From Geosiphon pyriformis uo1 (Eukaryota > Fungi > Glomeromycota), in NCBI GenBank assembly GCA_016748015.1, contig JAAOMT010000082.1, positions 219,483 through 283,482 on the forward strand: a DNA stretch of 64,000 bases, written 5' to 3'. Positions 3,457-53,506 of the stretch are shown here, piece by piece (within the stretch, counting starts at the first letter, position 1; each line of letters begins with the position of its first letter). The translations under genes were made by a program, and so were the position numbers. The notes beneath the pieces were generated by a model that saw only the letters and a program-made list of their open reading frames with translations, made no database searches and was not told the origin of the DNA.

Positions 3457-4116
3457 TTAATATTGAGCTCTGTCAAAATTCAATTCTTTTAATTTTCCCT
3501 CTTGAAGTATTTCCTGAATTTCATTTTCAAGAATTACTTGTGTTATTTGAGTCTGTAATTTTTCAAATTGAGCATTGGTGATTTTTCCCAATTGATTACT
3601 GGTAACCATATCTATTGCTTTGTTGAATAGGATTTCTGGTCTATTCTGAAATGCTGTGTGTATTTGGTATATAGCTCGAGCTTGTGTGGATAAGTTGTTT
3701 TTCTCCACAAAATGTTCTAGTTGTTGTAGTATTGTTGTGTCGAATAACTGCTTTGTTTTATCCATATATAAGTTCTGGATATTCACATGTTGTCCCAAGT
3801 AAAAATAACAATAGTTTCTTGGAAATTGTTGTATCCAACAATTCCAAGTTTTTTTTGTCAACTCTTGGTATATTGACTCTTTTGTCAATTCTTTTATTGT
3901 CAATTTTACTTTTGTAATAATTTTGTCAATAGTATTTTCTGGTTTCTTCTGTTTTCTGTTTTGCAGTGTTTTTCTAGTATCTTGATATCAAATGGTTTGT
4001 TGATTGATTGTAATCTCTATTTCTTGGTGTTGGATCAATTGAAAGAGTTGTTGTGCTAATGAGTGGATATTGTCCGTAATTTCCATTTTTCCGATATCTT
4101 TTGTCACATCTACCAT
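3457..4116 (-). pseudogene. B1 accessory ORF3 (unknown function), one internal stop
   Basis: 220 codons between integrase and PPT. Homologous to 50990-51649, 31986-32643 and, more distantly, to ORF3 of A and C. Confidence 0.75.
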
Positions 4117-12924: not shown

Positions 12925-13632
12925 CTAAAATTCTACTGGTAACATAATCTCCTCCTCAAGACTGAGCTCTGTCAAAGTCCAAGCACTATCTGTAATATTA
13001 AGATAGTGGTCCAAAATAATTAAAGTAATTTGGTCTGAAAATTGTTGAAATTTCAGTTCTGTGAGCTTTCCAATGTATTGAATCTTCATTGGTTGGAGTA
13101 TTGGGTTTTGTAGAATGTTTTCACACATATTGAATAGATCATAGAGTCTATAAGCTGCTCTAAGTTTGTAGTAAATGTTTGTTGGTCCAGCTGCTGTCTT
13201 GAATTCATTGTGAATTTGTTTTTGTATAGCTTTAGAAATGATGTTTGTTGCTTCAAATTCTAATTTTTGTTTATTAAGTGTTTTTCCAATATAAAAGTAT
13301 CTATAAATAAGGATATGTTTATTGTTCTGTTTATTGAAAAGTAGTAATAGTTTTTGTTGAAATATGGCATTTGGTGGAATGTTAATAGGGGCAAATAAGA
13401 GGTTTTCTTTTAAAGCTTGTTTTAAAAGTTCTGGTAATTAACTTTCAGAATAACTTTTTGTTTTTCTTTTATAGGGATAATAATTCTGAGAATTATTCAC
13501 TATTAGGGCTGTGGTTTTTTTCTGAATGTAATTAATTTGACTTCCATTAATTATTATAGATAAGTCAGGAAGTGTTTTCAAAGCTAGCATTAATTTTTGG
13601 GATATTTGTTGGATATTTCGGAGAATAATCAT
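12925..13632 (-). pseudogene. A1 accessory ORF3 (unknown function), broken by stops
   Basis: Fragments 13438-13632 and 12925-13128 match the intact A2 ORF 34529-35236. Confidence 0.75.
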
Positions 13633-21303: not shown

Positions 21304-22404
21304 TGTTACCCGAGTAAAAAAACCGATCCAAAGTTATGAAGAAACATGACCAAAACGTGACATAACACAGAATAACATGCAATAACGTTGGATAATGTAT
21401 TATAATGTTGAATAACGTGTTATAATGCAGAATAATACAGAATAGTATGCAATAATGTAGGATAACGTGTTATAATGCAAGATAACACAGAATAACATGT
21501 AATAACGTCAGATAACGTGTTATAACATAGGATAACTAGTGATAACATAGAAAAACAAAGCAATAACAGAAACAACAAAGCAATAGCTAGTGATAGTGAG
21601 ACAATTGAAAGCAATCCTGTAAAACCAAAAGAATGTATAAAAACAAGTAGTTGTAGAAGTAAGAAAAGACAAAAAGAAAAAAAAATAGATACGAACCTCT
21701 AGACCAGAAATTAAAATATCCATATCTTTTCATCCTTTATTATCTTTCTTATTTCATCTTCTGAAATAAATCAATTATTAAAAGAAATCAGAATTGTGAA
21801 TTCATGTTCTCAAACTTTGTGAAATTTACATGAATTAACTCTTGTCTTGTACCTCCGTTCTAGAACAGATGCTCTTAGCATAACTGCCTTAAACTTATTA
21901 ACAATTTGGACCAATCGCTTTTGATCATGGCGATTGATGATACTAATTTATCATTTCTCTCTTTTTTTTTCTTTTCTTTTCTTTTTTTTTTTCTTTTTTT
22001 TTCTGTCTTAATTTTTTTGTGGAACGGCAACATAGTAAAATTGACTGTCTAGGAATAGACTTCGTGATAGCCTGGTAAAAGAAAGAAGTTCCCCCTAAGT
22101 TTTGAATATTAACATTATCTTTTTAGCTTACCAGAAGGGCAAAAAGACAATGTCAGACCCTAACAACTGCACTCGTTAGCTTGAAAAAGAAAGCTCACAT
22201 TTACGAAAAACATTGTAATCGACGAAAGACAAACTCTGTGCCTTATAACCAAAGAACTCAATAGGTAAAATTCACATCCAGAAATAGACTTTCAGAGACT
22301 GATAATCAAGACTAAGCCGACAGAATTACGCAGAAAACGCATCATCAATAATTGAGAGCACCAAATGTTACCATTTCCCATATCCACCAAGTTTACTCAT
22401 AACA
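21304..22404 (+). repeat. C1 5' LTR
   Basis: TGTTACCCGAG…CATAACA; direct repeat of 30460-31534. Confidence 0.93.
21360..21550 (+). repeat. Family C U3 tandem array of ~9-10 bp ATAACR/ATAATR units (also ~30510-30695)
   Basis: About 20 units such as ATAACACAGA, ATAACGTTGG, ATAACGTGTT, upstream of TATAAAA at 21636. Confidence 0.85.
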
Positions 22405-22406
22405 TT

Positions 22407-22423: not shown

Positions 22424-22466
22424 TTATAAATCCACAGAGACAGAGCACTCCTAAAAATACATAAAA

Positions 22467-25400: not shown

Positions 25401-28252
25401 TGTCAGATGAAGGACTCTGGAATGATGTGCCTGGCAGAGGAGGAACATGCGATAAGGCTTGTCAATAAACCATATTAATCAACAATTGGGTATGAAAGGG
25501 AACCTCTATCGAAGATGCTTGGAAACGAGCACTCAACAGGCTAGATGGTTATCCACACAATGACCACAAAATCTGGAGAATGGCAAGCACCAAGGCCGAA
25601 GGTGCTATGCACGAAGAAATACGAGAAATTAAGGACAACCCTTGGATGCCTGAATATACTGGACCTGACTACCCCAAGAATAATTTCTTCACAGATGACC
25701 CAAACACATTTCAGAACCAATATCAGAAATTGGCCCCAACTCGCAAGGAACAGGAGCAAAGATTGGCTGATTTGAATACCAAACTATGCAATTACTGTTT
25801 GATTCTCTGTCATTTCCAGTACTGTGATGGATGTGATCTCATGTTCAATCCGCCTCCAAGAATACTGTTTCCAATCACCGAACTACCTGAACTTGAAGAA
25901 GAAGTATTGATTACCGAGGACATGTCATTTCAAGATCCAACTGAGGATACCAAAACAAAACAGTATTTCGTGTATCCCAATCTATCCAAAGAACTAGAGC
26001 TAAAATGGTACAGTGACAACGAGGAAGGAATCTGCCCCGAAAGAGTGCATGACACCAATGCCAGTTTTGACTTATGATACCCCGGACAATCACCCATCAT
26101 TATAGCCCCACATTCCTTCGTAAAAATAGATCTTAAGATAGTGTTAGAAATTCCTGTTAGTACAATGGTACAAGTTGCCTCTTGATTTAGTCTAGCCAAG
26201 AAAAAAATCAACATAAAAGGAAGAATCATTAATGCCGGTTACATGGGAAACATCATCATGATGCTACAGAACAATTCGGACAGACTCTACAAAATAGAAT
26301 TACAAGAAAAGATTGCCCAAGCTATCTTTCTACCTTTAGTCAAAATACTCCAATTAACCCCGGTAACAACTTGAGAAGAGTTAGGCCTCATTGCCTGAGG
26401 AATCAACGGGTTTGGATCAAGTGGAAGAGGAAACATACCAGTTAATTTCACAGAGGAAGACAGTAACCAGGTAGAATTTATCCTCACCAACACCGTCATC
26501 TCTATTCTCTCATACTAACAATACATCTTCAAGATGAATTGAAAAATCCAAGATCAAGCCCTATTATTCAAAGCCAGTCTCAAAATCTGTTCCCTAGCCA
26601 ATGTTGTTAATCTATACCTACTGGCCAAAGCCCATAAACACTTCAAAATCCTCATTCACAACCCGACAGAAGATGTCATTGAAATCCCCAAAGGGACCCT
26701 TGTCGGTTCCATATCCGCAGATAGTCAGAATCCTGAAAAACCCCAGTCCATTCCAGATTTTGCACAATTATTCTTATTCTGTGACATTACCTTACAAGTA
26801 TGGAATTTGCCAAAAGAAAGTTACTTGTTTGCACCAGAAGAGATCAATAAATTGAATTTAGGAAATTTAAGTACCTTGCAACAAATGCAACTCAAAGTCC
26901 TTCTGAATCAGTATGCCAATGTCTTTGTCAGTGAAAATGAGTTCGGATGCACCGACATCGTGAAGCATCAGATTGATACAGGAGACACTCGACCAATTAA
27001 GCAATGAGCTTACCGCATACCTCCATCTGGTGATAACCTAATTAAGCAAGAAGTACAACAGATGCTTGATAACGGCCTAATCAAAGAATTGTTAAGCCCT
27101 TGGTCCTCACCAGTAGTCTTGGTTACTAAGAAAAACGGAAAAGTGCAATTCTGCATAAATTATTGAAAACTAAATAGCGTCATGCGAAGAGATAGTTATC
27201 TCACTCCCCTTATCCAGGAAATTCTGGACAATCTAGAAAAAAAAAAATGGTTCTTGTCATTAGATTTAGCAAGTGGTTACTGGCAAGTTGAAATAGACCC
27301 CAAAGACAAAGGAAAAACAGCGTTTACCACTCAAGACAGAAACTTTGAGTTTAACGTAATGCCTTTTGGACTTTGTAATGCTCCTGCCATGTTTCAACGT
27401 CTAATGGATGTAGTATATAAAGGAATCCTTTGGAAATCAGTAGTAGTCTACCTAGATGACACAAACATGTTCTCCGAAATATTCGAAGACCATCTGCTTC
27501 ACCTGCAACAAGTCTTCAAACGCCTTCATAGTGCCAGATTGAAACTCAATTCCGAGAAGTGCTTCTTTGGAAAAACTGAGTTAAAATTCCTAGGACATGT
27601 AATTGGCAAGGATGGAGTTAAACCCGATTCAGATAAAGTACAAAAAGTCAAGGATTTTTCAGCCCCAATCAACCTCAGAGAATTACAAGGATTTCTAGGA
27701 TTAGCAGGATATTATCGTCGATTTGTCAAAGATTTCTCAAACATCACAAAACCACTCTATCAATTGTTGTTCAAATACGTACCGTACTTGTGGAAGGAAG
27801 ATCAACAGAAAGCATTCGACTATCTCAAGCAGCAATTGATCACATTCCCAATCCTGATTTACCCAGATTTCACTAAATAGTTCATTGTTGCTATGAACAC
27901 CTCGAAAAATGCTCTAGGAGCAGTCTTATCACAGATAGGACTGGACAATAGAGAACACCCAGTTGCCTACGCTAGTCACAGCACTAGCCCAGCAGAAAAG
28001 AATTACAGCACAACAGATCTAGAATGTCTCACCATTTATTGGGCCATACAGATTTGGAAACATTACCTCAGTCAACCATTTGATCTATATACCAACCACA
28101 AAGGACTTATTTGGTTACTCAACAATCCACAACTAGAAGAAAAATATGTGAGATGGAGTACTTATCTGCAACAATTCCCACTCAAAGTTCATTACAAAGA
28201 AGGATCCAAGAACACCAATGCCAACAGTTTGTTGAGGATGCCACAAACCTAA
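22467..28252 (+). pseudogene. gag-pol: C1 gag-pol, degenerate
   Basis: Gag 22467-24450 with CYYCQKPEHIVRDC knuckle, LILDSRS protease, Cys-rich ~25225-25835, dUTPase ~26000-26430, RT YLDD 27182-27880 and RNase H to MPQT* at 28252. Confidence 0.92.
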
Positions 28253-28262
28253 TCCCAGACCC

Positions 28263-29630
28263 ATGGACACACTCACTTATCAATGACTACATTAGTATCT
28301 ATCGACACTACATTTCAAGAAGATATTATCTCAACAGGAACAGAGTACTATACAAAAACAAGCCTGAAATTATTTTATTCAAGACAACCAACTATATTGA
28401 CGAGAATGCCAAAACCATTCCAACCCACAACAACTAATCATGGACAGTGAAAGAGAAACTATACTATATAGTGTGCACTCAGATCTGACTGCAGGACACT
28501 TTAACAAAGACATTACCCTCGAAAGAACACTAAACTTATACTATTGACTAATAATGCACAAAGACATTTTCAAATACATGCTCAATTGTGACGCATGCCA
28601 GCGAAGAGAAAGAGCAAGATCAACAGAACCACTTCAATCCATTCTAGTTGGAAATCTATTTGATAGAATTGGAATCGATTTGGTTGGATCTTTTTCAATT
28701 ACATCCCAAGGAAATTGCTATATTGCTGTAGCCATAAACTATCTTACAAAATGGCTAGAAGCCAGAGCAATCCAAGTGGCTAATGCCAAAACAGTCGCCA
28801 AATTTGTGCATCAAGACCTAATTTGCCAACATGAATGTCTGAAAGAATTATTATCTGATCAGGGAACACACTTCGTTAATAATACACTAACTGAACTAAG
28901 CCAACAGTTTGGAATAAAAAGACCCTTATTGTCACTATACCACCCACAAACAAACAGGCTGGTAGAACAGTTTAACAAAACACTGTGTGAAGCACTAGTA
29001 AAAATAAGTCATGAAAACAGACAAGAATGGGACTTATTCATATTTTCTGTACTTTTTGCATACCAAACATTGAAACAAAATACAACTCAGTTCACACCAT
29101 TCGAACTAATCTATGGAAGAAAATCTACATTACCGATTGAATGAGTAATACCATTATACCCAACAGAAACAATCAATGAAGAGAATTTTGAGACTACCTT
29201 ACACCAAAGAACATACCAGTTAATGGAAATGTTGGAAAACAATCAAAGAACAGCAGCTGACAATATTAGTCATGCTCAAGAACGACAAAAAGAAAGACAT
29301 GATAAACACCTGCCAGAACAACCAATGGAATTCAAGATTGAAGACCAAGTACTGTTACATCATACAAAAGCTAAGAAACAGTGAAGTGAAAAGTTTGACC
29401 CAAAGTGGGATGGTCCATTCCACATACATGAAGCGTTAGGAAATGGAACTTACAAATTACGATTGGAAGACAGGATTTTAAAGAAAGTAGCACATAGAAA
29501 TCGGTTAAAAATTTATCATGTAAAACAGAAATCATCATCATCAGTACCTCAACTAGGAACACAAATTTCATTAATCAGACCAGAAGATATACCACGAGAT
29601 CTGGAACCAATCATTGTTATCGAAACGTAG
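28263..29630 (+). pseudogene. int: C1 integrase (stand-alone ORF)
   Basis: ATG 10 nt after the RNase H stop; VHSD…GHF…CDAC, GIDLVG/SDQG/LVEQFN, GPF; ends EPIIVIET*. Confidence 0.9.
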
Positions 29631-29710: not shown

Positions 29711-30445
29711 ATGAACCTTTCAGATCAAATTTTAAAATTATCTAAACAATTATTTGAAACAATTCAAAAATTGACATCTCAAATAGAAATAACAATTGAT
29801 AAAAAAGAGATACGGTACAAAGATAAGAGCAAGAGAGAAGAGAACGAGAGTTCAATTAGAATTAAACGTTCTTTCTTCTACCCACTACCCGAAAGGCAAT
29901 GTGGAAGGAAAAATTGTTTTCAGGTGGGGGGTGGAAAAGAAGGAGACAAAGAATGAGAAAAAGGTTACAAAAGAAGATACTTGGTCCCTAAGCTCGAAGA
30001 AATAAAACAAGCTTTAGCTTGTAAGACCAAACTCCCTAAAACAAGGGAGTGAACACTTGACAATGCTCAGGAATGGAAAAAAAGACTTCCTCCAGCTTAT
30101 TGGTTCTACAAAATTGGAGAACAGCTTGACTTGAAAACACCATACAAAGACCTCAGCCAGAAAACATTTAACAAAGAAACAATACAACAAGTAGAAAAAT
30201 TCGTAAAAAAAAACAACTTGACTCTACATTACAAAGCAGTATACTGACTATATGTCATCTTCCAACATTGCCCAAACATACTACTAAATGGATCTATGAA
30301 AACCATAATGGTTAACAGCATAGGACAAATAACCAATCAACAGTTCAAAGATCTACAAAAGACAATACTTGAGACAACAATCGAACATTACACAAACAAA
30401 GCCATGATAACAGATACATACGGTTTCGCAGGAGCTCAATTTTAA
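29711..30445 (+). pseudogene. C1 accessory ORF3 (unknown function), frameshifted
   Basis: MNLSDQILKLSKQLF…IEITID…YWFYKIG…KAVY*LYVIF…IGQITNQQF…FAGAQF*; colinear with ORF3 of B. Confidence 0.7.
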
Positions 30446-30459
30446 AAAGAAAGGGATAA

Positions 30460-31534
30460 TGTTACCTGAGTAGAAAAACCAATCCAAAGTTATGAAGAAA
30501 CGTGACCAAAATATAACATAACACAGAATAATGCACAATAACATTGGATAATACGTTATAATGTTGGATAACGTGTTATAATGCAGGATAATACAGAAAA
30601 GTATGCAATAACATAGGATAACGTGTTATAACGCAGAATAACATGTAATAATGTCAGATAACGTGTTATAATATAGGATAACTAGCAATAATATAGAAAA
30701 ACGAAGCAATAACAGAAACAACAAAGCAATAGCTAGTGATAGCGAGACAATTGAAAGCAATCCTGTAAAACCAAAAGAATGTATAAAAGCAAGTAGTTGT
30801 AAAAGTGAGAAAAGACAGAGAGAAGAAAAAATAGATACGAACCTCTAGACCAGAAATTAAAATATCTATACCTCTTCATCCTTTATTATCTTTTCTATTT
30901 CATCTTCTGAAATAAATCAATTATTAAAATGTGAATTCATGTTCTCGAACTTCGTAAAATTTACATGAATTAACCCTTGTCTCATACGTCCATTCTAGAA
31001 CAGATGCTCTTAGCATAACCACCTCGAACCTATTAACAATTTGGATCAATTGCTCTTAATCATGGTGATTGACGATACTAATTTATTATTTCTCTCTTTT
31101 CTTTTTTTTTCTTTTTCTTTTTCTTTCTTTTTCTGTCTTAATTTTTTTGTGGAGTAACAACATAGTAAAATCGACTGTCTGGGAATAGACTTCATGATAG
31201 CCTGGTAAAAGAAGAAAGCTCTCCCTAAGTTTTGAATATTAATATTATCTTGTTAGCTTACCAGAAGGGCGAAAAGACAATGCCAGACCCTAACGACTCT
31301 GCTCGTTAGCTCAGAAAAAAAAGCTTACATTTACAAAAAACATTGCAATTGATGAAAGACAAACTCTGTGCTTTATAACCAAAAAACTCAATGGGTAAAA
31401 TTCACATCCAGGAATAGACCTTCAGAGACTGATAATCAAGACTAAGCCAACAGAATTATGCAGAAGATGCATCATCAATAATTGAAAGCACCAAACATTA
31501 CCATTTCCCATACCCACCAAGTTTATCCGTAACA
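30460..31534 (+). repeat. C1 3' LTR
   Basis: Preceded by PPT AAAAAGAAAGGGATAA. Confidence 0.93.
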
Positions 31535-31985: not shown

Positions 31986-32643
31986 TTAATATTGAACTTC
32001 ATCAAAATCTAGCTCTTTTAATTTCCCTTCTTGAAGTATTTTCTGAATTTCAGTTTCGAGAATTACTTGTGTTATTTGGGTCTGTAATTCTTTAAATTGA
32101 GCATTAGCAATCTTTCCCAATTGATTACTGGTAACTGTATTTATTGCTTTGTTGAATAGAATTTCTGGTCAATCTTGAAATGCTGTGTGTATTCAGTATA
32201 TGGCTTGGGCCTGTGTGAATAAGTTGTTTTTTCCCACAAACTGTTCTAGTTGTTGTAGTATTGTCATGTTGAATAACTGCTTTGTTTTATCAGTGTACAA
32301 ATTCTAGATGTTCATGTGTTTTTCTAAGTAAAAATAACAATAGTTTTTTGGAAATTGTTGTATCCACCAATTCCAAGTTTCTTTGGTCAACTCTTAGTAT
32401 AGTGAATCTTTTGTCAGCTTCTGTATTGCCACTTTTATTTTTTCAATAACTTTGTTAATGGTATTTTCTGGTTTCTTCTGTGTTCTGTGTTGGGATGTCT
32501 TTCTAGTATCTTAGTACTGAATTGTTTGTTGATTAATTGTAACCTCCATTTCTTGGTGTTAGATTAATTGAAAAAATTCATGCTAATGAGTGAATGTTGT
32601 CTGTAATTTCTATTTTTCTGATATTTTTTATCACGTCTACCAT
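31986..32643 (-). pseudogene. B2 accessory ORF3, degenerate
   Basis: Nucleotide-colinear with 3457-4116. Confidence 0.7.
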
Positions 32644-33576: not shown

Positions 33577-34548
33577 TATTACCAGAGATTTTTGGTCTCT
33601 TTTCTTAAATGTTGTTGATGTCTGTTCATTGTAAATTCACGTTTTCTGGATGTGGTTGAATCTCCAATAACTGAATTTATCTTCAAATTATCTCTTATAA
33701 TTTGAACTGCTGGGCTTATAAGTAGAATAACCAATTCCTTGCCAGTTACTTTATGTAGTTACATTGTAGTAAACATCAACTCTTTCCTAGGAATTGCTCA
33801 TTTGGAAGCTCACTAAAAATGTGTAGTTACTTTGCTGTGAAAGTCAACTCTTCTACAGGAATCTTGTCTGTAGGCTACCCTAATAATTGTAATAAGAAAA
33901 GAAAAAAAAAATAAAAAAAATGTAAAAAAAATAGGATTTTATCAAGGGAAACGTTTTTCTATTCAGGCCTAGAGTCACTAACAGTTTACTGAAATTGGTA
34001 GCTAATCAATTTCGAAATGTTAGTTGGATTTTGGGGATTTTCCAAGTACAATAATTAAAGAATTTGGTTTTTTGAATTATTTGATATTTATTTCTTTTTG
34101 TGTGTATAAGAACGGTTTTAAGAGATAAATCTAAAGTAAGATACATTTTTTTGAAGAAAAAAGCTCTTTTTTTATACAACTTGTTGTAGTACTAGTCTAT
34201 GAACTTGCACTTTTTCTCTTTGCTCAAATTTTGGCAAACTAAAGATACATTTTGGTAAACTACAAGTTATTTCGCTGAACTATTGATTAATTTGGGTGAA
34301 CTATTCATAATTTCGGCGAATTTCTGTAAATTTCGGCGAATTTTTGAATATTACAAAGTTCAGAGTATTGTGTAATTTGATCATCCTACTTTCTGTTATA
34401 CTAATTAGATTATTTTAATTGAATCATGATATGTGATAATTGATTAAATAATAAATGATAATTTGAAATGATATTAATATATTAATTAATTATAGGAATT
34501 ATAAAGGTAATTTCATGCTAATTAATAGCTAAAATTCTACTGGTAACA
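33577..34548 (-). repeat. A2 3' LTR
   Basis: Direct repeat of 52578-53506; PPT adjacent at 34549-34562. Confidence 0.92.
34228..34345. repeat. Family A U3 array of TTCGNCGAA-like palindromes, ~20 bp period
   Basis: TTTGGCAAA, TTTGGTAAA, TTCGCTGAA, TTGGGTGAA and TTCGGCGAA x2; similar arrays in the other A LTRs. Confidence 0.75.
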
Positions 34549-35236
34549 TAATCTCCTCCTCAAGACTGAGCTCCATCGAAGTCCAAGCACTATCTGTAAT
34601 ATTAAGATAGTGATCCAAAATAATTGAAGTAATCTGGTCTAAAAATTGTTGAAATTTCAGTTCTGTGAGTTTGCCAATGTATTGGACTTTCATTGGTTGC
34701 AGTATTGGATTTTGTAGAACATTTTCACAAGTATTAAACAAATCATAGAGTCTAAAAGCTGCTCTAAGTTTGTAGCAAGTGTTTGTCAGTCCAGCTGCTG
34801 TTTTGAATTCATTGTAGATTTGTTTTTGTATAGCTTCAGGAGTGAGATTTGTTGCTTCAAGTTCTAGTTTTCGTTCATAAAGTGTCTTTCCAATGTAAAA
34901 GTATTTATAGATAGAAGTGTGTTCATTGTTCTGTTCATTGAGAAGTAGTAGAAGTTTTTGTTGCATTGTAGCATTTGATAGAATTTCAATAGGGGCAATT
35001 AAAAGATTTTTTTCTAGTGCTTGCTTCAAAAGTCTTGGTAACCTATTTTCAGAGTGACTTCTTGTTTTTCTTCTATAGGGGTGATAGTTCTGTAGATGAT
35101 TTGCTACTGGAGCTGTGGTTTTTTTCTGAATGTAATTAATTTGACTTCCATTAATCGTTATGGATAAGTCAGAAAGTGTTTTTAAGGCTAAAATTAACTT
35201 TTGGAATATTTGTTGAATATTTCGGGGAATAATCAT
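34529..35236 (-). CDS. A2 accessory ORF3, intact 235 aa, unknown function; runs through the PPT into the 3' LTR
   Basis: Uninterrupted ORF with motifs LSITIN…INY, YFYIG, RAAFRLYDLF and IGKLTELKF shared with ORF3 of B and C. Confidence 0.8.
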   Translation of the reverse strand: MIIPRNIQQIFQKLILALKTLSDLSITINGSQINYIQKKTTAPVANHLQNYHPYRRKTRSHSENRLPRLLKQALEKNLLIAPIEILSNATMQQKLLLLLNEQNNEHTSIYKYFYIGKTLYERKLELEATNLTPEAIQKQIYNEFKTAAGLTNTCYKLRAAFRLYDLFNTCENVLQNPILQPMKVQYIGKLTELKFQQFLDQITSIILDHYLNITDSAWTSMELSLEEEIMLPVEF

Positions 35237-35382
35237 AATAAAATTGACTAATTATGAAAAGAGAGAATAAGAAAAATTATTTTTGGGATATGGGGTTTTT
35301 TATTTGTTTTTGGGTTTGGGTGTTTTTGTAATTTATTTACTATTTTTGTCTTTGTGTTTTTATTGGAGAATTATTGTAAAAT

Positions 35383-36744
35383 TTAAGTGTTTAAGTTTGG
35401 TTGTTGTTCTATTATAATTATTGGTTCTAAATTTTGGAGAATATCTTTAGGATTAATTAAAGGGGAATGTGTACCAATTTGTGAAATTAATGGTTCAGGA
35501 TTGTTTCTGGAATGATAGTGTTTCAATCTGTTTTCATGTGCAACTTTTGCTAGTATTTTGTTATCAAGTCTTAATTTGTATGATCCATTGCCTAGAATTT
35601 CGTAAATATAGAATAGTCCATCCTATTTGTTTTCAAATTTTCTACTCCATTGTTTTTCAGCCTTAGTTCTGTGTAAGAGAACTTTTATCTCCAATTTTTA
35701 ATTTGTGAGTTATGGGTGGTAATTTGTTGTCATGTCTTTCTTTTTGTTGAGCTTGGGAATGTTCAATATGAGTTGCTGCTATCCTTCTTTTTCCTTTCAG
35801 TGTACTAAGAAGAGTGTAGGTTCTTCTTTGGAGTGTTTCTTGAAAGTTTTTTTCATTGATTGGTTGCACTGGATATGTTTCCACTGTGAAATTAATTGGT
35901 AATATTGCTGTCCTTCTATAAGTAAGATCAAATAGTATGTGTTTCATAGTATCTTGTTTTAGTGTTCTGTATGCTAGTAACACTGATGGAATAAAGATAT
36001 TCTATTCCTGCTCAAAGTCTGTTAAGACTTTGGCTAGAGATTCACACAATGTTCTGTTAAAACGTTCTACAAATCCATTTGTTTAAGAGTGATAAAGTGA
36101 TGATAGAGGTCTTTTGACATTGAATTGTTCACAAAATGTGTTCCTTGATCAGATAAAAGTTCAATTGGGCATTCATGTCTACAGATAATGTCTTCATAGA
36201 TGAAATTTGCTACTGATTTTGCATCTGCTCTTTGGATGGCTCTAGCTTTAGGCCATTTGATAAGATAATCCACTGCAACTGCAATATAATAATTTCCTTG
36301 GGTTGTGATAAGTAATGGTCTGACTAAATCAATTCCAACTCTGTCAAACGGTTGTCCAACTTTGATTGGATTTAAAAGTTCTGTGGGGTGAGTTTCTCTT
36401 CTTTTTTGACAACTCTCACAAGATTCTACATATTGTTGAATGTCTTTTTACATGTGAGGCCAAAAATAATGTTCAAGGGTTCTTTGAATTGTTCCATCTC
36501 TTTCCAAGTGTGCTGAAGATGGATTTGTGTACATGTTGTATAAAATTGTTTCTTTTTCATTTTTTTGTACTAATCTGAGTGGTTGATTTGGGTTTCTGTG
36601 ATTTTTATAATAGATTTTGTTCTGGTGTATAAAATATTGCTTTAATTGGTATTGTAAACGATGTTTTTCACTTGGAGACCAGTTTTCTGGCATGGTAAGA
36701 GTCTCCAAATAATTTTTAAGATTGCTGTAATTTCTGGAATCCAT
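35383..36744 (-). pseudogene. int: A2 integrase (stand-alone ORF)
   Basis: ATG MDSRNY… 57 nt after the RNase H stop; DYLIKWP, SDQGTHF; small internal deletion or frameshift. Confidence 0.88.
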
Positions 36745-36801
36745 TCTTGTTTGGTTATTTTGTTAGTAGGTTAGTAAGTTGTAGTGGAATTGTTGTTGGT
36801 A

Positions 36802-39800
36802 TTAATCTTGTCTCATTCTTGAGAGGCTATTAACATTGGTATGTAGTTTTCTTGGTTTGTGGTATACAATATATCTGTAGTCTGCTAGGAAGTCATTCCA
36901 TTGAAACTGTTTGGCACTTTGTTCAGTTTTCTTTTTATTGAGCCATTTGAGGCCAATGTTGTCTGTTATTATGTCAAATTCTTTTCCATTCTTCAAATAT
37001 TGTTAAAAATGTTTAAGAGCCCAAATAACTGCAGCAGCTTCTAATTCAGTTGAGCTATATTTTAGTTCTGTTGGTTTGAGTGTTCTACTAGCATAAGTGA
37101 TGACTTGTTTTTGCCCATTTTCATCTACTTGTGATAAGATGGCACCAAATGCTATGTGTAAAGCATCAGTGGCTAGTTGAAATTATTTGTTGAAGTCTGG
37201 GTAAGCAAGAACTGGGGCTGTTGTCAGCTTTGTTTTGAGCGTTTCAAATGCTTTTTGTTGTTTTTCAGTCTATTTGTATGGCACATTTTTATTGGTAAGA
37301 TAATTGAGTGGTTTGGCAATTTCTGAGAATTCTTTGATGAATTTTTGATAATAGAAGGCTAATCCTACAAATTCTTGTAGCTCTGTGGTATTTTTGGGGG
37401 TTTAGAAGTTTTTGACAACACTGATTGTTCCAGGGTTTGGTTTGACTCCATCTTTGCTAACAATGTGTCCAAGAAAGATTAAGCTTGTTTTTCTAAAGTG
37501 ACATTTCTCAATATTCAACTTCAATCCTGCTTTCCGTAATCATTGAAAAACTTCTTGCAGGTGAATAAGATGGGCTTCAAAGCTTGGTGAGTACACATTA
37601 GTATCATCAAGGTAAACAACTACTGATTGCTATAAGAGTCCTTCATATACAACATCTATGAGTCGTTGGAATGTTGCTGGTGCATTACAGAGTTCAAAAG
37701 GCATAACATTAAACTCATAGTTTCCTCCTTGGGTGGTAAATGCTGTTTTGGGTCGGTCTTTTGGGTCCATTTTGACTTGCCAGTATCCACTTTCCAAGTC
37801 TAGAGTTGAGAAGAACTTGGTCTTTCCTAGAGCATCTAGCATGTCATCAATTCTTGGAAGAGGGTAGGCATCTCCAATTGTAATACTATTTAGTTGTCTA
37901 TAATCAACACAGAATCTGATTTTTCCATTTTTCTTTTAACTAAAACTACTGGTGAGACCTAAGAACTTTTTGATGGTTGAATCAATCTGTTATTGAGCAT
38001 TCTTTGGACCTCTTCTCTGATGAATTGGATGCTGGCAGGTGGCACTTCATAAACTTGTTGATGTTTTGATAGGGCATCTCCTGTATGGATCTGATGTTGA
38101 ACAATGTCTGTTTTTCCCAAGTCATTGTTGTCTTTTGCAAATATATCTGCAAATTCAGCTATCAATTGTTTCAATTGTCTTTGTTGTTAAGGTTCTAAGG
38201 GACTCATGTTGATTCGAGAGAGTTTTTCTTTCACAAAGTGGTAGTTTTTAGTAGTGGGAATGATATTTGGATTTGGGAGTAAAGTGTGCCTTACAATTTC
38301 GATGAAATTAAAGACAATTTGAGGGTTTTCATCTTGAAAAATATTGCTGTGTATGATTCCAATCTCTAGTTTGTTTAATAAAACAATAGAGTAATTATTG
38401 GGGTTGTAGAATGTAACTCGAAATTTTTTCATTCTTTTGGGAATATAAATGTTTGGAATTGAGATTTTATGCTTCAAACAGATTTGTTCATTGGATTCAA
38501 AGATTTGTTGTGTGGTGGTGGGTTTTGAGCAAGTATAAATTTCGTGATGTTCTCTAAAAGGTGAAATGATAATTGGCTGGAGAAGTTGAAAAATCTGGTG
38601 AGATTCATTTTGTGTATTAAGAGCTATGTTTACTGGGACTCTAAATCGTCCAGTTGAACCAAAACTTTGAGTTCCTCTTTCACTTTTTCTCAATTGTTCT
38701 CTGTTGTTTACTGATTGTAATCCCGAAATGTTGATTAAGGGTAAATAAATTGCTTGAGCAATTTTTTCAGCATGTTCAATTTTGAATGGTTTGTCTGTCT
38801 CATTCTGTAACATGATGGTAATGTCTCCAGTATATCCTGCATTTATAACTCCTCCTCTAATATTGATTCCTTTGTTTGCCAATGATGATCTGGAGGCAAT
38901 TTGAATCATTGCTCCTGGTGGAATTTCAAGAGCAATTTTGAGATTGATTTTTGTTAAGGACTTTGGTTGGAGAACCAAAGTATTTTTTCCTGGGTATCTT
39001 AAGTCATATCTAGCATCAATTTCGTGTGCTTTTTCTGGTCTGATTTCTTGGCCATGGTTGTCAAAATATTTAAGTTGTAGAGGTGATTGCTTTTCAAGAA
39101 GATAGATGGAGGTGGTTGGTAGTTTTTCTACTAATTTAGATACTCCAAATTCGATTTCATTTTCTCATTCTCATCTGGCAGAGGAATGCTAAGAGCATAA
39201 CATTCTAAACACTATTGGTAATCACAAGGCATAGCACATTCTTCACACAATTGAATGTTTATTTGCTCTAATTATTGAATTTGAGCTTCTTTGGTCGAAT
39301 ATGTGTGGCTTGCAATTTGGTGGTAGGTTTCTACTTCATTTTCATAATCAAATTTAGCTAATTCTATAGTATACTCAATATATTCAGCTTCTTTCATTTG
39401 GTGGACTTCTTCTTGGGTGGCTCCATTAATCAATGCTATTGCTAGGTCAAAAATCATTTCAGCATCATGAGAGTAGTGGTAAAGTTTATTGAAAGCACTG
39501 TTGTATGCTGCATCAAATGATGTTTCTCTTCTGACTTTTTCCGAAATTGATAGAGCATATTGACAGGTTTAATTACATACTTCTCCTCTCATTGCTACAT
39601 CAATCCAATTGCATTCTTTTAGTAGCATTTCTCCACATGTAAGGCAAGGAGTTTTGTCCCATTTTCTACTTCTTTTTGGGGATCCAAATTGTTCTCTATG
39701 GCATGCTTTGCAGAAGTAACAAGTGCAAGTTTTGTATTTTTTTTCTGGGGAAATACAGGCTTCTATAGATGAAAGCTTCTTTTTGCAATCTTTGCATTTT

Positions 39801-42409
39801 AGTAGAATGTATGGTGGTTCTTTTCGTGGTTCTGGTGTGGAATATCTAACTTTCTTCCATCCCCTTGATTCTTCAAAAATCTCTTGTTCTGTTTCCTCAG
39901 CCCAATTGGATGGTGATCTAAGAGCCATATAGGTTTCAGTGAGTGGCATTTTCTTCTCTTCTTCAAATTCAAATACTGGAGCTTTTTCTGATTGTTTGTT
40001 AAAGGTACCACAGGTTGCAGGTACTATGATATATTGTTCTTGGTATAAGATTTTAAGTTCTTGAGTTTCTCAGTTCAGGTTTGCATTGGCCTTGAAAAGC
40101 CAATTATTTCCAACTAGAGCTTGATATTGGAGTGTATTCATAACAAGAACTTTAACTGAAATGGTGATTCCATTAATTGTAAAGGGGAAATCATCAATTT
40201 TTTTTACTGAAATCTTCTTTATACCATCAGCTGTGACAATAACTGTTTGAGCTGGTCTGTTTATATTTCATATGAGTTGTTGCATCAGCTGATAAGTGAT
40301 GATACTTCCAGCCAATCTACTATCTAAGATTAAGCAAATGGGTTTTCTTTCTACTGTAGCTTCTGTATACATAGCAGTAATTGTTTTTTGTTCATTGACT
40401 GCTGCATTACTAAGCAGAAATAGTGATTCATTTGTTTCAAATTCAAATGAAAATATATCTGACAGATTGGCATTTTGTGCAATTTGAGCTGGTGGAATGG
40501 TGTGGTTGGAAGGGTTTGATCTTGGTGCTGTAACTTCACCTTTAGAAAGTGCAATTTGTTGAAAATCCGATTCCTCTGGTATTGTAAAATAACTGGATTG
40601 AGTGTGATAGTAATTAGGTCTATGCTGACCAAAATTTCGGGAAACCAACTGGTTATTTGAATTGATTCTGTTGTTGTTACTCTGCAATTGATTTTGGGGT
40701 GTAAATTGGTTATGTTGAACCAATTTTCTTGCTGGTACTTGATATTGTTGAGTGGGTGGTGTCTGATATGGCTGAATTGGTAAAGGTTGCTGATATTGTT
40801 GCTGCATTGGTTGTGGAGCTGGTAAATAGTAACTGTTTTGATTTTGTGGTCTTGGTGAATAATAGGTTGGTGGTGGAGATTGGTAATAAGATTGTTGTGG
40901 TGAAAAGTAACATTGATTACTCCTGTTTTGCTAGTCTCTTTGTAATTTCCTACAATCTCGTTTCCAGTGTCCTGGAATTCCACAATAATGACAATTTTGA
41001 GATTGGTTGTTGGATGGTAATCCAAAATTGTTTTGGTTGTGTCATTGTGGGAGTTGATATCTTTGTGGTTGTTGTTGGTTTGTGAAATAGCTTTCAACCT
41101 TTTTTGTGAGTTGGTCTATCTTCTCTTCAGCTGTTGAGCTGGTTTCTCCAATTGCAAGATTTACAAGCTTGGTGTGATTTGTTTCTTCCAATGCTATTTC
41201 ATAGCTCTTTGTATGTCTAATAGTAGTTGCTAAGTCTGCTAGAGCATGTGGATGGACTTTCTTAATCAGTTTGTCTTTTAACCCTGCTATAAACTGATCC
41301 AGAATTTGAGCATCAGAATAGTAGTTATTGGTTTCCAATTGTCGAATCCATCTGAGAAGTTTGTTAAATCTTCCAAGATAGGTCATAACAGTTTCAGATG
41401 TTTCTTGTTTGATATTGTGAAAGCAGTTTCTGAGAGTGATAGAGGTATTGTTGTCAGTAAATTGTTGTAGAAAAGCATCTTTGAATGCTTGCCAGTTTTC
41501 AAATGATTTTTCTAAATTTTCAAACCATTCTCCTGCCATTCCTTGGAGAAAGTAGGGAATTGCTTTGAGCATTCTTACTGCGATCCAACCATTTGCATCT
41601 CCTGCTTTTTGAACTTTGTTAAGCCATTCTTAAGGACTGGTATCATTGTCTTCACTAGTGAATTCTGGGATTTTTGCAATGTAAGCAGTTGCCATTTCTT
41701 CTTTATTTTCTGTAATTTCTTCTGGTTTTGATTCAGTTTCTTTACTTTCCAAGCTTTCTGAATGATTACTTTTGTTTTCCTGTAAGTAATTAATGATATT
41801 GGCACTTGTTGATATTGGTTCCTGCTGTTGAATAGGGTTTCTAGGTGACTGAAAATCTTCTGGTCTGGAGAAGCAGTTGAGTGGTGAATTTGGTGTTTGT
41901 GGTTGAATAAGTAAAATTGGAAATAGTGTAATAGAAAGTGGTAATTTGACACTAATTTCTTGTTCAGGTGTTCACAAGTGTTTGGCAATTGTCTTTTGTA
42001 GTATTGGAGTGTTTGGAGTGGTTTTTGAGTATTGCTTCAATCTTTGTTTGTCTTTGTTGCTTGTTTCTGTCTTTGATTCAAAGTCAAAAGAGTATTTAGA
42101 CTGTACTGAGTATTTTTCTTCACAATATGCAATAATGTTAAAATTAAGTTCTTGGAAGTAGGTAGCAAGTGTTTTACTGTTTAGGTCTTCTGTCCCCAAT
42201 TGTAAATAGTGCACTAAATTATTGTATAGATTGCTTTTAACTTCTGAAATGTTGTAGTTTCCAAAAAGATAATTGTTGATGCAGTTTTTAATGTATTGGT
42301 ATACTGATTTCTTGACAACTTCAATTCCATCTGGAATGTTGAATCTTTGCTTGCAGTGGGTGTAAATTGACTGGTAATACTCTAGAGTTGCTGTGTCTGG
42401 TGTGGTCGC
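36802..42409 (-). pseudogene. gag-pol: A2 gag-pol, degenerate; GTG start at 52529-52531, beyond the B3 insertion
   Basis: Gag 41042-41572, LILDSR protease, Cys-rich ~39200-39800, dUTPase ~38640-39075 (SRSSLA, GVINAGYTG, KIAQAI, RGTQSFGSTG), RT and RNase H to MRQD*. Confidence 0.9.
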
Positions 42410-42479
42410 TGTTATTCATAGAAATATAAGAAATATATTAGCATAATTATTAGCCAATCAGAAGTAAGTGTAGTAAATG

Positions 42480-42636
42480 TGGAATTCCAGGATTCCTCTT
42501 AGGAATTGCAGGATTCCAGGAATTTCAGGATTCCTAATGAGGAATTGCAGAATTCCAGAATTCCTCTCAAAGGAATTGCAGGATTCCAGGAATTTCAGGA
42601 TTTCTGTTGTGAAGAGTCGAGGAATTGCGGAATCCC
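42480..42636 (+). repeat. Family B U3 tandem array of GGAATTCC/GGATTCC/GGAATTGC units (all six B LTRs)
   Basis: About 14 near-palindromic 8-10 bp units directly upstream of TATATATA (42644-42651). Confidence 0.85.
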
Positions 42637-42643
42637 AATTATG

Positions 42644-42651
42644 TATATATA
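42644..42651 (+). promoter_or_regulatory. Putative LTR TATA box
   Basis: ATGTATATATAGCAGTAG in B aligns with ATGTATAAAAACAAGTAG in C (21633) and TGTATAAAA in A, each right after the U3 array. Confidence 0.55.
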
Positions 42652-43343
42652 GCAGTAGTATTAGAAACAGAAAAGACAAAATCGATACCACAGAATCCTT
42701 AGCCAAGAAACCAATCATCAAATAAATAATTATTCTATTTCTCAATCCACTCTTTACTATCAACCCTTTATGTTGATAGTAATTGATACTTAACTATGCT
42801 AAAACAATAGCTCTTGATCATAGCTATTGATGAAATACTAATGTACCGAATTGCCTTGGCTTATTTCTTTATTTTCTTTAATTTTATTTTCTTTCTTTCT
42901 TTGATTTTGTTGTTATATACTAATTGAGTAAAAAGATTAAGCACTGAGTTATTGATGTCAAGGATAGCCTGGTAAAAGACTCAGAAATAAGGGTAGAATT
43001 ATATATATATTAACAGATAGCTTACCAGAAAGGCATGACTGCCAGAGTAAATCCAGCCACCAAGCTGAGAAAGAAATTGGGCATAATTGCGACTCCAAAA
43101 AAACTACTATTATCAACACTAAATCTCTGTCCATTATACAAAAAACTCCACAAAAAAATCTTCAGATCAACCAAAACCTTCAGATACCATACCTTTCACA
43201 CATCATTCATGAAAATAGCTTTTGAGTACCAAGTTACAGGTTTGTTATTCAATTTAACAACAGAAATAATCACTTGTAACATTTGGTGCTCTCTGTGAGG
43301 TATAATCCTACAGAAAACCAGCACTAACAACACCAAACCAAAA

Positions 43344-46300
43344 GTGGCAGAATCAGAAATTATAAGAGCTAACCATTTAGGATTCGCAAAATCCTTATTT
43401 CAACACTATTGTCAATACTTGGGATTAAACCACAATCATATATCTGCCGAATCAGCCTTCAATTTCTATGTTAATGAAAAAATTTTTTCTTTATTAGGAA
43501 CACCAGTAAATACTGAATCAGCAAGAGAAACTTTCTATAAGGAATTAATTCAAAACACCAACCTACCAACAAACTATAATTTTGTATTCATTATCATTAG
43601 GATCAACAAAAAAATTGAACACCATACTCAACAAAGATATCCAATTACATATGCTAGTAAAGGCAAGAGAAAATTACAAATACCAACAGTAATACTCCGG
43701 AAAATACAGCCACCTGCTTGGAAGAAAAACAAAGTTGAATCTCTAAGCAACCCATCATACCATTATACACCTGGAAGTGCCATCAACATATCATCAACCA
43801 ACACATTTCCATCAACTGTGACATCAGCATTTGGATGATTCCCATTCCAAAGTAGACAAAGAAAAACAGAATTGTTAGGACCATACAGCAAATACTTTGA
43901 GGGATTTAATTTGCAATCATCAACCCCATCAGGACTTCAGTTACCACTGCCTCCACCAGATTTCAGAATCTCTGATCCATGGGAAGCAGCAGAATCAGAA
44001 AAGGAGGAAGAAAAATCAGAGGATCAAGAATTCACTTACCAGCACTCAATCACTGAAAACCCAGAAGTTGAAACCCTGAACATTCAAACTCAACAACAGT
44101 TAGAAAATCCGGAAATCGAAACTCCGAATATTCGAACGCCACCTAATCAAAGAAATCAAAACCCTGAATTAATCCATTAGCAAAACTTACCTCCAGTAAT
44201 TGTCATCGATCAACTGCCAATTAATCCCATAGCCAAACCCATACAGCAGCCACTTCAGCTACCACCCCAACAGCCAGGACAACAACAACTGTTTCAACAG
44301 CCACCACAACCACTTAACTTAGACCCAATGGCCTACGCTCTAATTGCAAAACTTAACAACTTTACGGGCGAAAAAGATAACACTCAAATATGGCTGAATA
44401 ATGTAGAAAAAGCCATCGCAGCCAACGGATAGAATAACACTCAAGCAATGCAAGCCATTCTCTACTTTCTTAAGGATACTGCCGATTCATGGTACCAGAG
44501 CTTGATTAATAAACCACAAGATTTTAATGCCTTCAAAGCGGAATTCCTAAGATACTTCAGCAACAATAACAGCATCAATCACCTAGTCAATGCATTCACC
44601 ACCATGAAACAAGGAGAAACTGAAGCAGTCACCACTTATCTGGGATGCTTCTATCGAAACCTACATCAAATTCAAGCAATTAATGCCAACTATTTTATAG
44701 CACCACAGATACTCAATCAGTTTATCCGTGGCCTGCACAGCAGCATCTTGCAACATATATGTCCATTGCATTCAGGCACTCTTTAAGATGTAGTTACACG
44801 TGCCAGAGATTTTGAATCTGCTGAGTCAGAGACTAACCACGCCCAAGCCATTAATCTAGTAATAAACAAATCATCTGAATTGGATTCCAAATTGGAGAAG
44901 TTCAGTGAATCAATTAATAAGAGATTGGAAGGATACTTAGCTGACAATTACATCATATATTGGCCTCCACAATGACACAATAATCAAGGAAACTCTAATC
45001 ATGCCCAAAATCAACCACGTCTATCTTCATTAACCAATCAACAGTGGCAACAGGAAATGCGTATCTGCCACTATTGTGGTAAACAAGAACATATCCAAAT
45101 TGACTGTTGCCAGCATTTAAATAATTAATGATTGGAAAATCAATATCGAAACCCTGATCACCAGTTTCAAACTCCGAATCAGTACCCAAATCAAAACCCA
45201 CCCGTTTACCTACCAGTGACGCAGTCATCAGTCTATCAGTCTCCAGTATATCAACCTCCAATTTATCAGTTGCAGCCACAAGTAATATATTAACCACAGC
45301 CACAAATAATCTATCAACCCCAATAGATCCAAACACCGTCCCAAAGCTTACCACCCAATGGAACCCAAAGACTGAAAATGACTCAACAAAGCTGGAGATC
45401 GGCAATAGTAGTCCATCAACCGATCCCCAGTTCTTCACAGCAACCATCTGGATTACACCAGCAGAATTCGGGTAGCAGTCAACCCCAAAACCCAAATTTC
45501 CAGAACTATTTAAGTCTCTTGGTCACTCCAGAAGATGCTTCAACCAATAATCCGGCATTTACCCAAAAACAACCACTCACCAGTAATATCCCACCTGCTA
45601 CCATCACCGAAGATGAGTTATTGGCCACTATCTTCCTATTCGAATTTGAGAAAACAGCTGCAATGCCATTATTTAGTGGAGCCGCTCTTGAAGCCAAACC
45701 AATCACCGTGATGTACACTGATGCCAAAGTCGAAGGACAATCCATCAAATTGATCCTGGACAGTGGTTCCACAGGCAGCATAATCACAAGACAACTCATG
45801 GATCAATTAGATCGCCAAGTTGATCGAGCTGCCAGCACCAGAATCATTACAGCCGATGGAGCAATCAAAACTCCAATCAGCAAAATCGATGACTTTCCTT
45901 TTAAAATCAATGGCATTATGACTCCCATTAAAGTTCTAGTGATAGAAGCCACTCAATACTAAGCTTTTGTTGATAATGACTGGCTATTTAAAGTCAACAC
46001 AACATTAGACTAGAACACCCAGGAACTCCAGCTAATGTATCAGGGCCAACACATACATGTTCCGGTCACATGTGGCTACTTCAAAACTTCTCCAAGAGAG
46101 AAACTATTGATCGAACTGGAGGAGGAGAAAAAAAAGCCTACCTGAAAAGCCTACCAAGTGTCGTGGGTGGACAAAGAGCACAATGAACTACCGCCAATAC
46201 TCTCCTGGAACAACAGCAACAAGAGAAAAAGGAAACAAAAAGAAAAACATACCTGGGAAACTGATGACCTGACATGGACTGACAACAACAAGAGCAAACC

Positions 46301-49519: not shown

Positions 49520-49582
49520 AAACATTTCAACCCAAAAATATAATAAAACCAGAACAATACCAACGGAAAAATACAACAAAAG

Positions 49583-50989: not shown

Positions 50990-51649
50990 ATGGTAGACGT
51001 GACAGGAAATATAAGAAAAATGGAAATTACAGACAACATTCACTCACTAGCACAACAATTCTTTCAATTAATTCAACACCAGGAAATGGTGATTACAATC
51101 AATTAACAAACCATTCGATATCAAGATACTAGAAAGACATTTCAACTCAGAACACAGAAGAAAACTGAAAATACTGTGGACAAAATCATGGCAAAAGTAA
51201 AATTAGCAATAAAAGAATTGACAAAAGAGTCACTATATCAAGAGTTGACTAAAGAAACTTGGAATTGGTGGATACAACAATTTCCACAAAACTATTGTTA
51301 TTTTTACTTGGGACAACACATAAATATCTAGAATCTATATATGGATAAAACAAAGTGATTATTTGACAAAAGAATACTACAACAATTAGAACATTTTGTG
51401 GGAAAGAACAACTTATCCACACAAATCCAAGCCATATACTGAATACACACAGTATTTCAAGATAAACCAGAAATATTGCTTAACAGAGCAATGGATATGG
51501 TTATCAGTAATCAATTAGGAAAAATTACCAATGCTCAATTTGAAGAATTACAGACCCAAATAACACAAGTAATTCTCAAAAATGAAATTCAAGAAATACT
51601 TCAAGAGGGGGAATTACATGAGTTAGATTTTGACGGAGCTCAATATTAA
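50990..51649 (+). pseudogene. B3 accessory ORF3, several C>T stops
   Basis: 220 codons, ends FDGAQY* at the PPT. Confidence 0.75.
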
Positions 51650-52577: not shown

Positions 52578-53506
52578 TATTACTGGAGGTTTTTGGTCTC
52601 TTTTCTTAAATGTTGTTGATGCCTGTTCATTGTGAATTCACATTTTCTGGATGTGGTTGAACCTCCAATAACTGAATTTATCTTCAAATTATCTTCTATA
52701 ATTTGAACTACTGGGCTTATAAGTGGAATGGCCAATTCCTTGCCAGTTACTTTATGTAGTTACATTGTAATAAACATCAACTCTTTCCCAGGAATTGCTT
52801 GTCTGGAAGCTCACTAAAAATGTGTAGTTATTTTGCTGTGAAAGTCAACTCTTCTACAGGAATCTTGTCTGTAGGCTACCCTAATGATTGTAATAAGAAA
52901 AGAAAAGAAAAATAAAAGAAATGTAAAAGAAATAGGATTTTATCAAGGGAAACGTTTTTTTATCCAGGCCTGGAGTCACCAACAGTTTACTAAAATTGGT
53001 AGCTAATCAATTTCGAAATGTTAGTTGAATTTTGGGAATTTTCCAAGTACAATAATTAAAGAATTTGGTTTTTTGAATTATTTGATATTTATTTTTTTTT
53101 GTGTGTATAAGAACAGTTTTAAGAGATAAATCTAAAGTAAGATACATTTTCTTGAAAAAAAAAGCTTTTCTTTTATACAACTTGTTGTAGTACTAGTCTA
53201 TGAACTTGCACTTTTTCTCTTTGCTCAAATTTCAGTGAACTAAAGATACATTTTGGTGAACTACAAGTTATTTCGCTGAACTATTCATAATTTCGGCAAA
53301 TTTCTGTAAATTTTGGCGAATTTTTGAATATTACAAAGTTCAAAGTATTGTGTAATTTGATCATCCTACTTTCTGTTATATTAATTAGATTATTTTAATT
53401 GAATTGTGATATGTAATAATTTGAAATAATATTAATATATTAATTAATTATAGGAATTATAAGGGTAATTTCATGCTAATTAATAGCTAAAATTTTACTG
53501 GTAACA
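52578..53506 (-). repeat. A2 5' LTR
   Basis: Followed on the minus strand by PBS TTTAGTGCTCTCC. Confidence 0.92.

Follow-up and report, generated by a model that had tools for sequence, protein, structure and literature searches.

The window, by which we mean the whole stretch of 64,000 nucleotides of Geosiphon pyriformis DNA analysed here, was resolved by self-comparison and boundary reading into a nest of six Ty3/gypsy-dUTPase elements belonging to three families, A, B and C. Boundary reading placed B1 in the 3′ LTR of A1 and B2 in the A1 leader, C in the 3′ LTR of B2, and B3 in the leader of A2. The A elements and the ends of A2 are located as follows:

1883-62239, A1 element, the outermost of the nest
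33577-53506, A2 element, inserted in the B2 integrase
33577..34548 (-), 3′ LTR of A2
34552..34561 (-), polypurine tract (PPT) of A2, whose in-frame translation is the acidic tail of ORF3
52578..53506 (-), 5′ LTR of A2, which holds two further copies of the A motif described below

Pfam searches recovered gag, protease, dUTPase, RT, RNase H and integrase in Ty3/gypsy order, the dUTPase being located between protease and RT. The host elements thus present LTRs, a primer-binding site, a PPT, target duplications and the canonical order of domains; their departure from the canonical Ty3/gypsy layout is an integrase encoded as a separate frame. LTR pairs are 90-94% identical, so none of the copies is recent and all have undergone neutral decay; the gag-pol of A2 is fragmented. 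B2 in A1 (20858/61227) and B3 in A2 (42410/52525) were found at the identical nucleotide and in opposite orientations, each some 50 bases into the leader of its respective A element, which suggests a strong insertion hot spot.

Downstream of the integrase, all six elements carry a homologue of an additional frame, ORF3:

34529..35236 (-), ORF3 of A2, 235 aa, open; runs over the PPT and terminates in the 3′ LTR
12925..13632 (-), ORF3 of A1, 235 aa, one internal stop
3457..4086 (-), ORF3 of B1, 209 aa, one internal stop
~31986..32618 (-), ORF3 of B2, decayed, with several stops and a frameshift near the start
51020..51649 (+), ORF3 of B3, 209 aa, four internal stops
29711..30445 (+), ORF3 of C, 244 aa, three internal TGA

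ORF3 of A2 consists of 235 codons followed by TAG, with no internal stop. It is therefore fully open despite a broken gag-pol, as the first-pass annotation had remarked. The five other copies in the window contain 1 to 8 stops each, and full-length open versions of the A, B and C types were found among database proteins (P0003, P0125 and P0239). That same annotation had described, in every element, an ORF of ~220-240 aa between integrase and PPT. The presence of the frame was borne out in 6/6 elements, but its length had to be widened to 209-244 aa. The position is correct for B and C, where ORF3 terminates just short of the PPT, but not for family A, in which the frame reads across the PPT and ends 5 codons within the 3′ LTR (LTR start 34548). 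The motifs proposed to be shared, (L/I)xITI(N/D)xxxIxY, YFY(I/L)G or WFYKIG, (R/K)AxxxLYxxF or RAIYQIHTAF, and (I/L)G(K/Q)(L/I)TxxxF, were all found, and aligned with each other.

Two observations concern the borders of the frame. The ~35 bases preceding the 3′ LTR are similar in A, B and C (34548-34590, 3445-3481 and 30425-30460); A uses a different frame over these bases, which gives it a distinct ORF3 tail entering the LTR, and this A-type tail is also present in the metagenomic locus L001 and in protein P0305. At the other end, a pyrimidine-rich run ending in TAG lies directly upstream of the ORF3 ATG in A1 and A2 (35237-35290, (-)), and could be a candidate splice acceptor. In L001 the pyrimidine-rich run upstream of ORF3 is present, with no nearby AG.

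ORF3 proteins of the window families are mutually 18-25% identical. Alignment of the core of the protein with hhalign gave probabilities of 96.7% for A-C (E 3e-10), 91.0% for A-B (E 1e-6) and 99.3% for B-C, against a maximum of 3.2% for reversed controls. The N-terminal module aligned at 82% for A-B, 95% for B-C and 96% for A-D, and at only 36% for A-C. The A-E core pair scored 1.2% directly, which is not significant, and is connected via the other families (D and E are further Geosiphon families, see below). Judged from these profile alignments, ORF3 homology across A, B and C is above chance.

The matches obtained by homology search were hypothetical proteins of Geosiphon pyriformis (best 120 of 197 for A, 114/114 for B, 37/37 for C), two of which are 100% identical to parts of the window frames. 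A profile search among 1.84 billion protein representatives yielded 94 matches, of which 30 new ones were examined and 10 looked up. Eight of these 10 were from G. pyriformis, and the two others were metagenomic proteins of 230 and 234 aa. Families D and E came from the 30 examined matches; one E protein was looked up and belongs to G. pyriformis, and D was placed in this species from flanking gene-model context alone. Scanning about 36 of 64 parts of the metagenome collection returned two loci, L001 and L002, and the metagenomic relatives of ORF3 come from soil samples. L001 reads RT-RNase H, stop, an integrase frame with its own ATG 24 bases on, a 316-base spacer and an intact ORF3, which overlaps the PPT and the LTR start as in family A. 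In L002, ORF3 also lies downstream of an integrase tail, from which it is separated by another open frame of 137 codons (398-811). Pattern-limited searches of viral contigs, prokaryote genomes and phages returned no ORF3 relative, nor did a search of this kind in viral contigs return any relative of the L001 integrase. Altogether, the homology spans at least seven lineages. The Atlas returned 24 unnamed clusters, mostly from Mucoromycota, at up to 0.93, and a wider fungal family is possible.

The dN/dS ratio of ORF3 was 0.48 for A2/A1 (95% interval 0.32-0.71), and 0.36, 0.42 and 0.43 for three B pairs, which are not mutually independent. These ratios were computed on frame-blind DNA alignments with transitions weighted sixfold; without this weighting they fell to 0.19-0.27. 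Comparison genes gave 0.50 for the integrase of B, 0.40 for dUTPase, 0.33 for gag and 0.24 for RT; the integrase of A2/A1 (126 codons) gave 0.77, with an interval that spans 1. Decay after insertion drives every one of these values toward 1. When the ORF3 frame was shifted, dN/dS rose to 0.88-2.87. An independent, diverged contig was also compared with A2 ORF3: 22 of 30 differences (30 of 32 being listed) fell at third positions, and 19 of the 27 changed codons were silent. From the window pairs and this one contig, we concluded that ORF3 is under purifying selection, with a dN/dS like that of integrase and dUTPase. A ratio near 1, which the first-pass annotation had named as the outcome that would speak against its proposal, was not what we obtained (0.36-0.48).

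These data bear on the simplest alternative, namely that ORF3 is open by chance, or through conserved DNA signals near the PPT, and is no functional gene. The last codons of family A do coincide with the PPT and the LTR start, and A, B and C have similar DNA just ahead of the PPT, though read in differing frames. Against this stand the dN/dS below 0.5, with shifted frames near or above 1 and an excess of silent changes, as well as protein homology that extends across more than 100 residues with 20-30% identity. Moreover, open frames of 230-235 codons occur in two organisms, and none of 20,000 base shuffles remained open end to end for either of them, A2 ORF3 included. This explanation is already largely refuted, and we regard it as hardly credible.

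The separate integrase frame was examined at the following junctions:

36742..36804 (-), split-pol junction of A2: RNase H stop, 57-base spacer, integrase's own ATG
5518-5585, split-pol junction
28250-28265, split-pol junction
L001 772-801, split-pol junction

An RNase H stop followed by a separate integrase frame was found in the six window elements and in L001, that is in 7/7 elements with a junction, L002 being too short to include it. The integrase ATG is retained in A2, B1, B2, C and L001, and the spacers between RNase H and integrase are 10-62 bases long and A/C-rich. All seven elements with the junction also carry ORF3, and the linkage between ORF3 and the split-integrase layout, which had been put forward for survey, therefore holds in 6/6 window elements and in L001.

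Such an association would suit ORF3 being an RNA- or ribosome-binding factor that enables restart on the separate integrase frame of a predicted polycistronic RNA, in the manner of caulimovirus TAV. TAV is likewise separately encoded, and acts in reinitiation after long frames, according to the accessible part of PMC5972666. However, Pfam, PDB and BFVD searches gave no similarity to TAV, the short A/C-rich spacers may permit restart in cis, and the co-occurrence comes from one lineage, so that it reflects shared ancestry and not independent cases. We think it unlikely that ORF3 acts in this way.

Trees of RT-RH, integrase and ORF3 each part (A, L001) from (B, C), with supports of 98-100; this comparison has a single informative split, and long branches are flagged in the ORF3 tree. 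It fits with ORF3 having been inherited together with pol. To our knowledge, extra genes behind the integrase occur in LTR retrotransposons, most of them with no assigned role or origin. As far as sequence data go, ORF3 is a third gene that this fungal Ty3/gypsy lineage passes on vertically and maintains under selection.

Two groups of genes in other LTR retrotransposons can be compared with it. Sense additional ORFs (aORF-3S) occur between pol and the 3′ LTR, and those described in the available portion of PMC7264820 are env-like with membrane segments. ORF3 likewise lies in sense orientation behind pol and ahead of the 3′ LTR, occurs in 6/6 elements and is conserved (dN/dS 0.36-0.48); it thus shares with the aORF-3S, to the extent that this source describes them, its position and orientation, its occurrence in every copy of a family, a degree of conservation similar to that of the element proteins, and an unknown origin. 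ORF3 differs in having no membrane segment; its lineage has a dUTPase and encodes the integrase as a separate frame, and ORF3 of the A-like branch passes through the PPT into the LTR. The second group is that of the bdelloid rotifer elements Juno, Vesta and TelKA, dUTPase-bearing LTR retrotransposons with non-env ORF3s (PMC5408684, in part). The likeness lies in a third gene, in the env position, of gypsy-like elements that bear a dUTPase. However, in the same part of this source the rotifer ORF3s are family-specific and comprise DEDDy exonucleases, GDSL esterases, and coiled-coil or membrane proteins, whereas the Geosiphon ORF3 matches none of these in Pfam and is common to at least seven lineages. 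No Pfam match to the rotifer-type enzyme families (DEDDy, GDSL) was recorded among the 29 and 21 members scanned.

A structural model of full-length ORF3 had a mean pLDDT of 74, with an N-terminal helix and hairpin of low confidence, a linker that is basic and disordered, and a helical core modelled with confidence. Two parts were delimited:

34601..34975 (-), conserved helical core of ORF3, residues 88-212, predicted pLDDT 88
35126..35236 (-), N-terminal module, residues 1-37, predicted helix and beta-hairpin of low confidence, common to the families

Modelled alone, the core reached a pLDDT of 88 and a pTM of 0.81, with seven helices. The earlier description of ORF3 as a helical accessory factor agrees with this all-helical prediction. 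It had also been called not env-like for want of a transmembrane stretch, and indeed no membrane helix was found in seven members (peak 19-residue hydropathy 0.27-1.29), in keeping with a soluble helical model. In a comparison of seven lineages, basic residues were conserved at K138 (6 lineages), K150 (6), R158 (5) and R162 (6), together with a turn, G149-K-T-N152, whose Asn is invariant; the other conserved positions belong to the hydrophobic core. Invariant residues are Y, N, F, L and I. No D, E, H, C or S is invariant across the seven lineages, and nothing looks catalytic. The basic linker contains a PY plus basic motif in 5/7 lineages, which we take to be of the nuclear import type. Overall charge is mildly basic or slightly acidic in 6/7 members. 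An acidic activation tail was considered as a family feature and rejected: the tail of family A is the PPT read in frame, and those of B and C have a net charge of 0 to +1 (the boundary being set by the analyst).

Searches for a known family or fold gave nothing significant, by sequence or by structure, which agrees with the initial statement that no domain is recognisable. A confident match to a described retrotransposon ORF family, the other outcome that the first-pass annotation had named as speaking against its proposal, was likewise not obtained. Neither Pfam nor PDB sequence searches returned a significant match to ORF3, and Foldseek against PDB and BFVD gave 0 matches at E<=0.001. A structural aligner found none at Z >=8, the best, at Z 6.2, being a designed repeat protein. 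PHROGs matches were to unnamed families only, with a best E of 1.7e-4 for core pieces and 0.001-0.1 for whole proteins. A literature search, most subscription journals lying outside it, found no publication on ORF3 or on these Geosiphon elements, and ORF3 is apparently an undescribed protein family.

Below significance, several leads pointed in one direction. The DNA-binding domain of Spo0J aligned over the whole core (Z 4.7, rmsd 4.7, 91 residues aligned), ranking 15th and under the caution level of the tool; the Raf1 N-domain also gave a whole-core alignment, at Z 4.5. In Pfam, DUF1016_N (PF17761) was matched with a best E of 0.037 (2/29 members) and 0.053 (1/21), short of the curated cut-off. 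With hhalign, this family reached 39%, with a score of 29 versus a maximum of 19 for 120 column shuffles and 18 for 17 real-protein decoys; the pairwise E of 3e-4 becomes about 8 after correction, the family having been picked post hoc from 24,736. The DUF1016_N alignment built for this comparison had 10 rows, the plasmid row L006 having been dropped as it contains a stop. DUF3102 clusters of the Atlas scored 0.87 and 0.85, and Plasmid_parti_N clusters likewise 0.85-0.87, all under the lead threshold. DUF1016_N, DUF3102 and Spo0J-type domains presumably form one group of ParB-type helical folds. The likeness between ORF3 and DUF1016_N, DUF3102 (PF11300) or ParB/Spo0J is a weak match over the Y(F/W)xIG helix, the turn with the invariant Asn and the next helix. 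These families are however prokaryotic (DUF1016_N being the YhcG N-terminus), and their scores lie below library-wide significance. The DUF1016_N, DUF3102 and ParB DNA-binding domain leads thus converge, and are weak hints, none being significant after correction for library size. DUF1016_N itself has no known function in the accessible text of PMC1189080.

The top named match in the Atlas, at 0.91-0.92, was of another kind, the coat protein of closteroviruses (filamentous viruses), flagged by the tool as probably wrong. Together with the all-helical prediction, it speaks for ORF3 being a particle component, a chaperone or an RNA-silencing suppressor without sequence-specific DNA binding; sense extra ORFs of plants have been suggested to act as chaperones (PMC7264820, same portion). 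Yet the coat-protein match has no more than 129-145 of 256 features in common with ORF3, no other match in the top ten is of its kind, and structure comparison gave no capsid match. Such a role is improbable in our judgement.

If ORF3 binds DNA, candidate sites may be sought in the LTRs. In each family, a distinct repeated motif precedes the TATA box in U3 and is nearly confined to the LTRs of that family:

34310..34341 (-), family-A U3 motif, two copies, upstream of the TATA box; candidate ORF3 sites
35219..35230 (-), echo of the A motif with one mismatch, just past the ORF3 start codon
42501..42602 (+), family-B U3 array in the B3 5′ LTR, 8/17-base period with GGAATTCC-type palindromes, preceding the TATA box
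21402..21525 (+), family-C U3 array in the C 5′ LTR, inverted repeat ATAAC-GT-GTTAT
30528..30692 (+), family-C U3 array in the C 3′ LTR

The A motif has 14 matches versus 2.6 expected, with A LTRs accounting for 8 and the start of ORF3 for 2, and the C inverted repeat has 7, all in C LTRs, versus 0.21 expected; these motifs were picked by eye from the very LTRs tested, and the 7-mer test alone gave no enrichment of the A motif. In L001, TTGCCCT is found 3 times in U3, twice in the spacer between integrase and ORF3 (0/20,000 spacer shuffles) and not at all in 2.8 kb of coding DNA. No echo of this L001 motif was seen in L002, nor of the U3 motif upstream of ORF3 in B and C. One target common to A, B and C was also considered, and rejected, as the LTRs share no word of at least 9 bases with at least 3 G/C. 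U3 repeats are common in LTRs and can be sites for host factors. The case for the U3 arrays as targets of ORF3 is circumstantial.

Alternatively, ORF3 could be a DNA-binding cofactor of the integration complex, which would guide nuclear entry or site choice via LTR ends or target DNA. The basic helical core and the possible import signal would suit this role, as would an integrase made apart from pol and the same-nucleotide insertions of B2 and B3, which point to site choice. However, it is in the promoter part of U3 that the family-specific arrays are found, and not at the LTR tips, which are alike across all families, and site choice is usually set by the integrase itself. We consider a function in integration quite unlikely.

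Two regulators offer models of how ORF3 might work. The Tas/Bel1 gene of foamy viruses lies near the 3′ LTR and encodes a protein that binds both the LTR and an internal promoter at response elements (PMC517496, as far as the source was accessible). As a model of action only, it resembles L001, where the U3 motif is also found upstream of ORF3: a possible Tas-like pattern, with candidate sites in the LTR and also at the own gene, was observed for L001, with an echo for A, and was not observed for B or C. ORF3 elements differ from foamy viruses in having no env, and ORF3 in having no general acidic tail; no link of sequence or fold was found, Tas not being among the matches listed for ORF3 in Pfam, PDB and BFVD. 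The second model is VANC, an anti-silencing protein of Arabidopsis VANDAL elements, whose targets are family-specific tandem repeats that differ between related elements (PMC5735166, accessible part). Here the likeness, again one of working, lies in family-confined repeat arrays in non-coding DNA, the binding of ORF3 to such arrays being our proposal. VANDALs, however, are plant DNA transposons, and no similarity to ORF3 was found. Of the three guesses made at the outset, Tas, TAV and VANC, the evidence thus leans, circumstantially, to a DNA-binding regulator of the Tas or VANC type over a TAV-like factor.

The reading that we tentatively prefer, as a serious possibility somewhat short of probable, is that ORF3 is a DNA-binding protein, specific to its family, which activates its own LTR or counters its silencing. 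The protein would be made from a subgenomic or spliced RNA, or through downstream initiation, and imported into the nucleus by the PY plus basic motif of its linker. The helix-turn-helix-like part, residues 133-167, would read DNA, with the conserved K/R touching the backbone and family specificity residing in the variable positions. ORF3 might dimerise, perhaps via its N-terminal module, to bind the U3 repeats, which are mostly palindromic, and binding would raise transcription from the LTR or shield U3 from methylation. A fuller picture, which we regard as doubtful, is that the lineage long ago captured a prokaryote-type, ParB/DUF1016-like helical domain as its own transcription switch, each ORF3 reading its own U3 motif and the A-like branch having a second site at its own gene, in a foamy-virus-like loop; the outcome would be family-private activation or anti-silencing in a methylated genome.

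If ORF3 does bind the promoter repeats of its own family, a fungal retrotransposon would here encode its own family-specific regulator. This could explain the expansion of such elements despite host silencing, and natural protein-site pairs would be supplied, with 3 or 4 candidate pairs at hand. LTR elements make up 41% of the G. pyriformis genome, as given in the available section of PMC11952901.

A few further features of the nest were noted. Target duplications in the window are of 4 bases, and several are apparently CpG-decayed. A primer-binding site common to the families was read at 43283-43300, 11795-11811 and 22405-22422, and resembles, we assume, the end of elongator tRNA-Met. In all families, a long unannotated N-terminal stretch precedes the gag capsid domain (41972-42415 (-), 43299-43838 (+) and 22455-23000 (+)); it had no Pfam match in the one copy scanned. 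Finally, the nest is flanked by pieces of another element (1445-1942 (-) and 62803-63255 (-)), apparently one frame split by A1, which by motif we take to be the RNase H end of a non-LTR retrotransposon.
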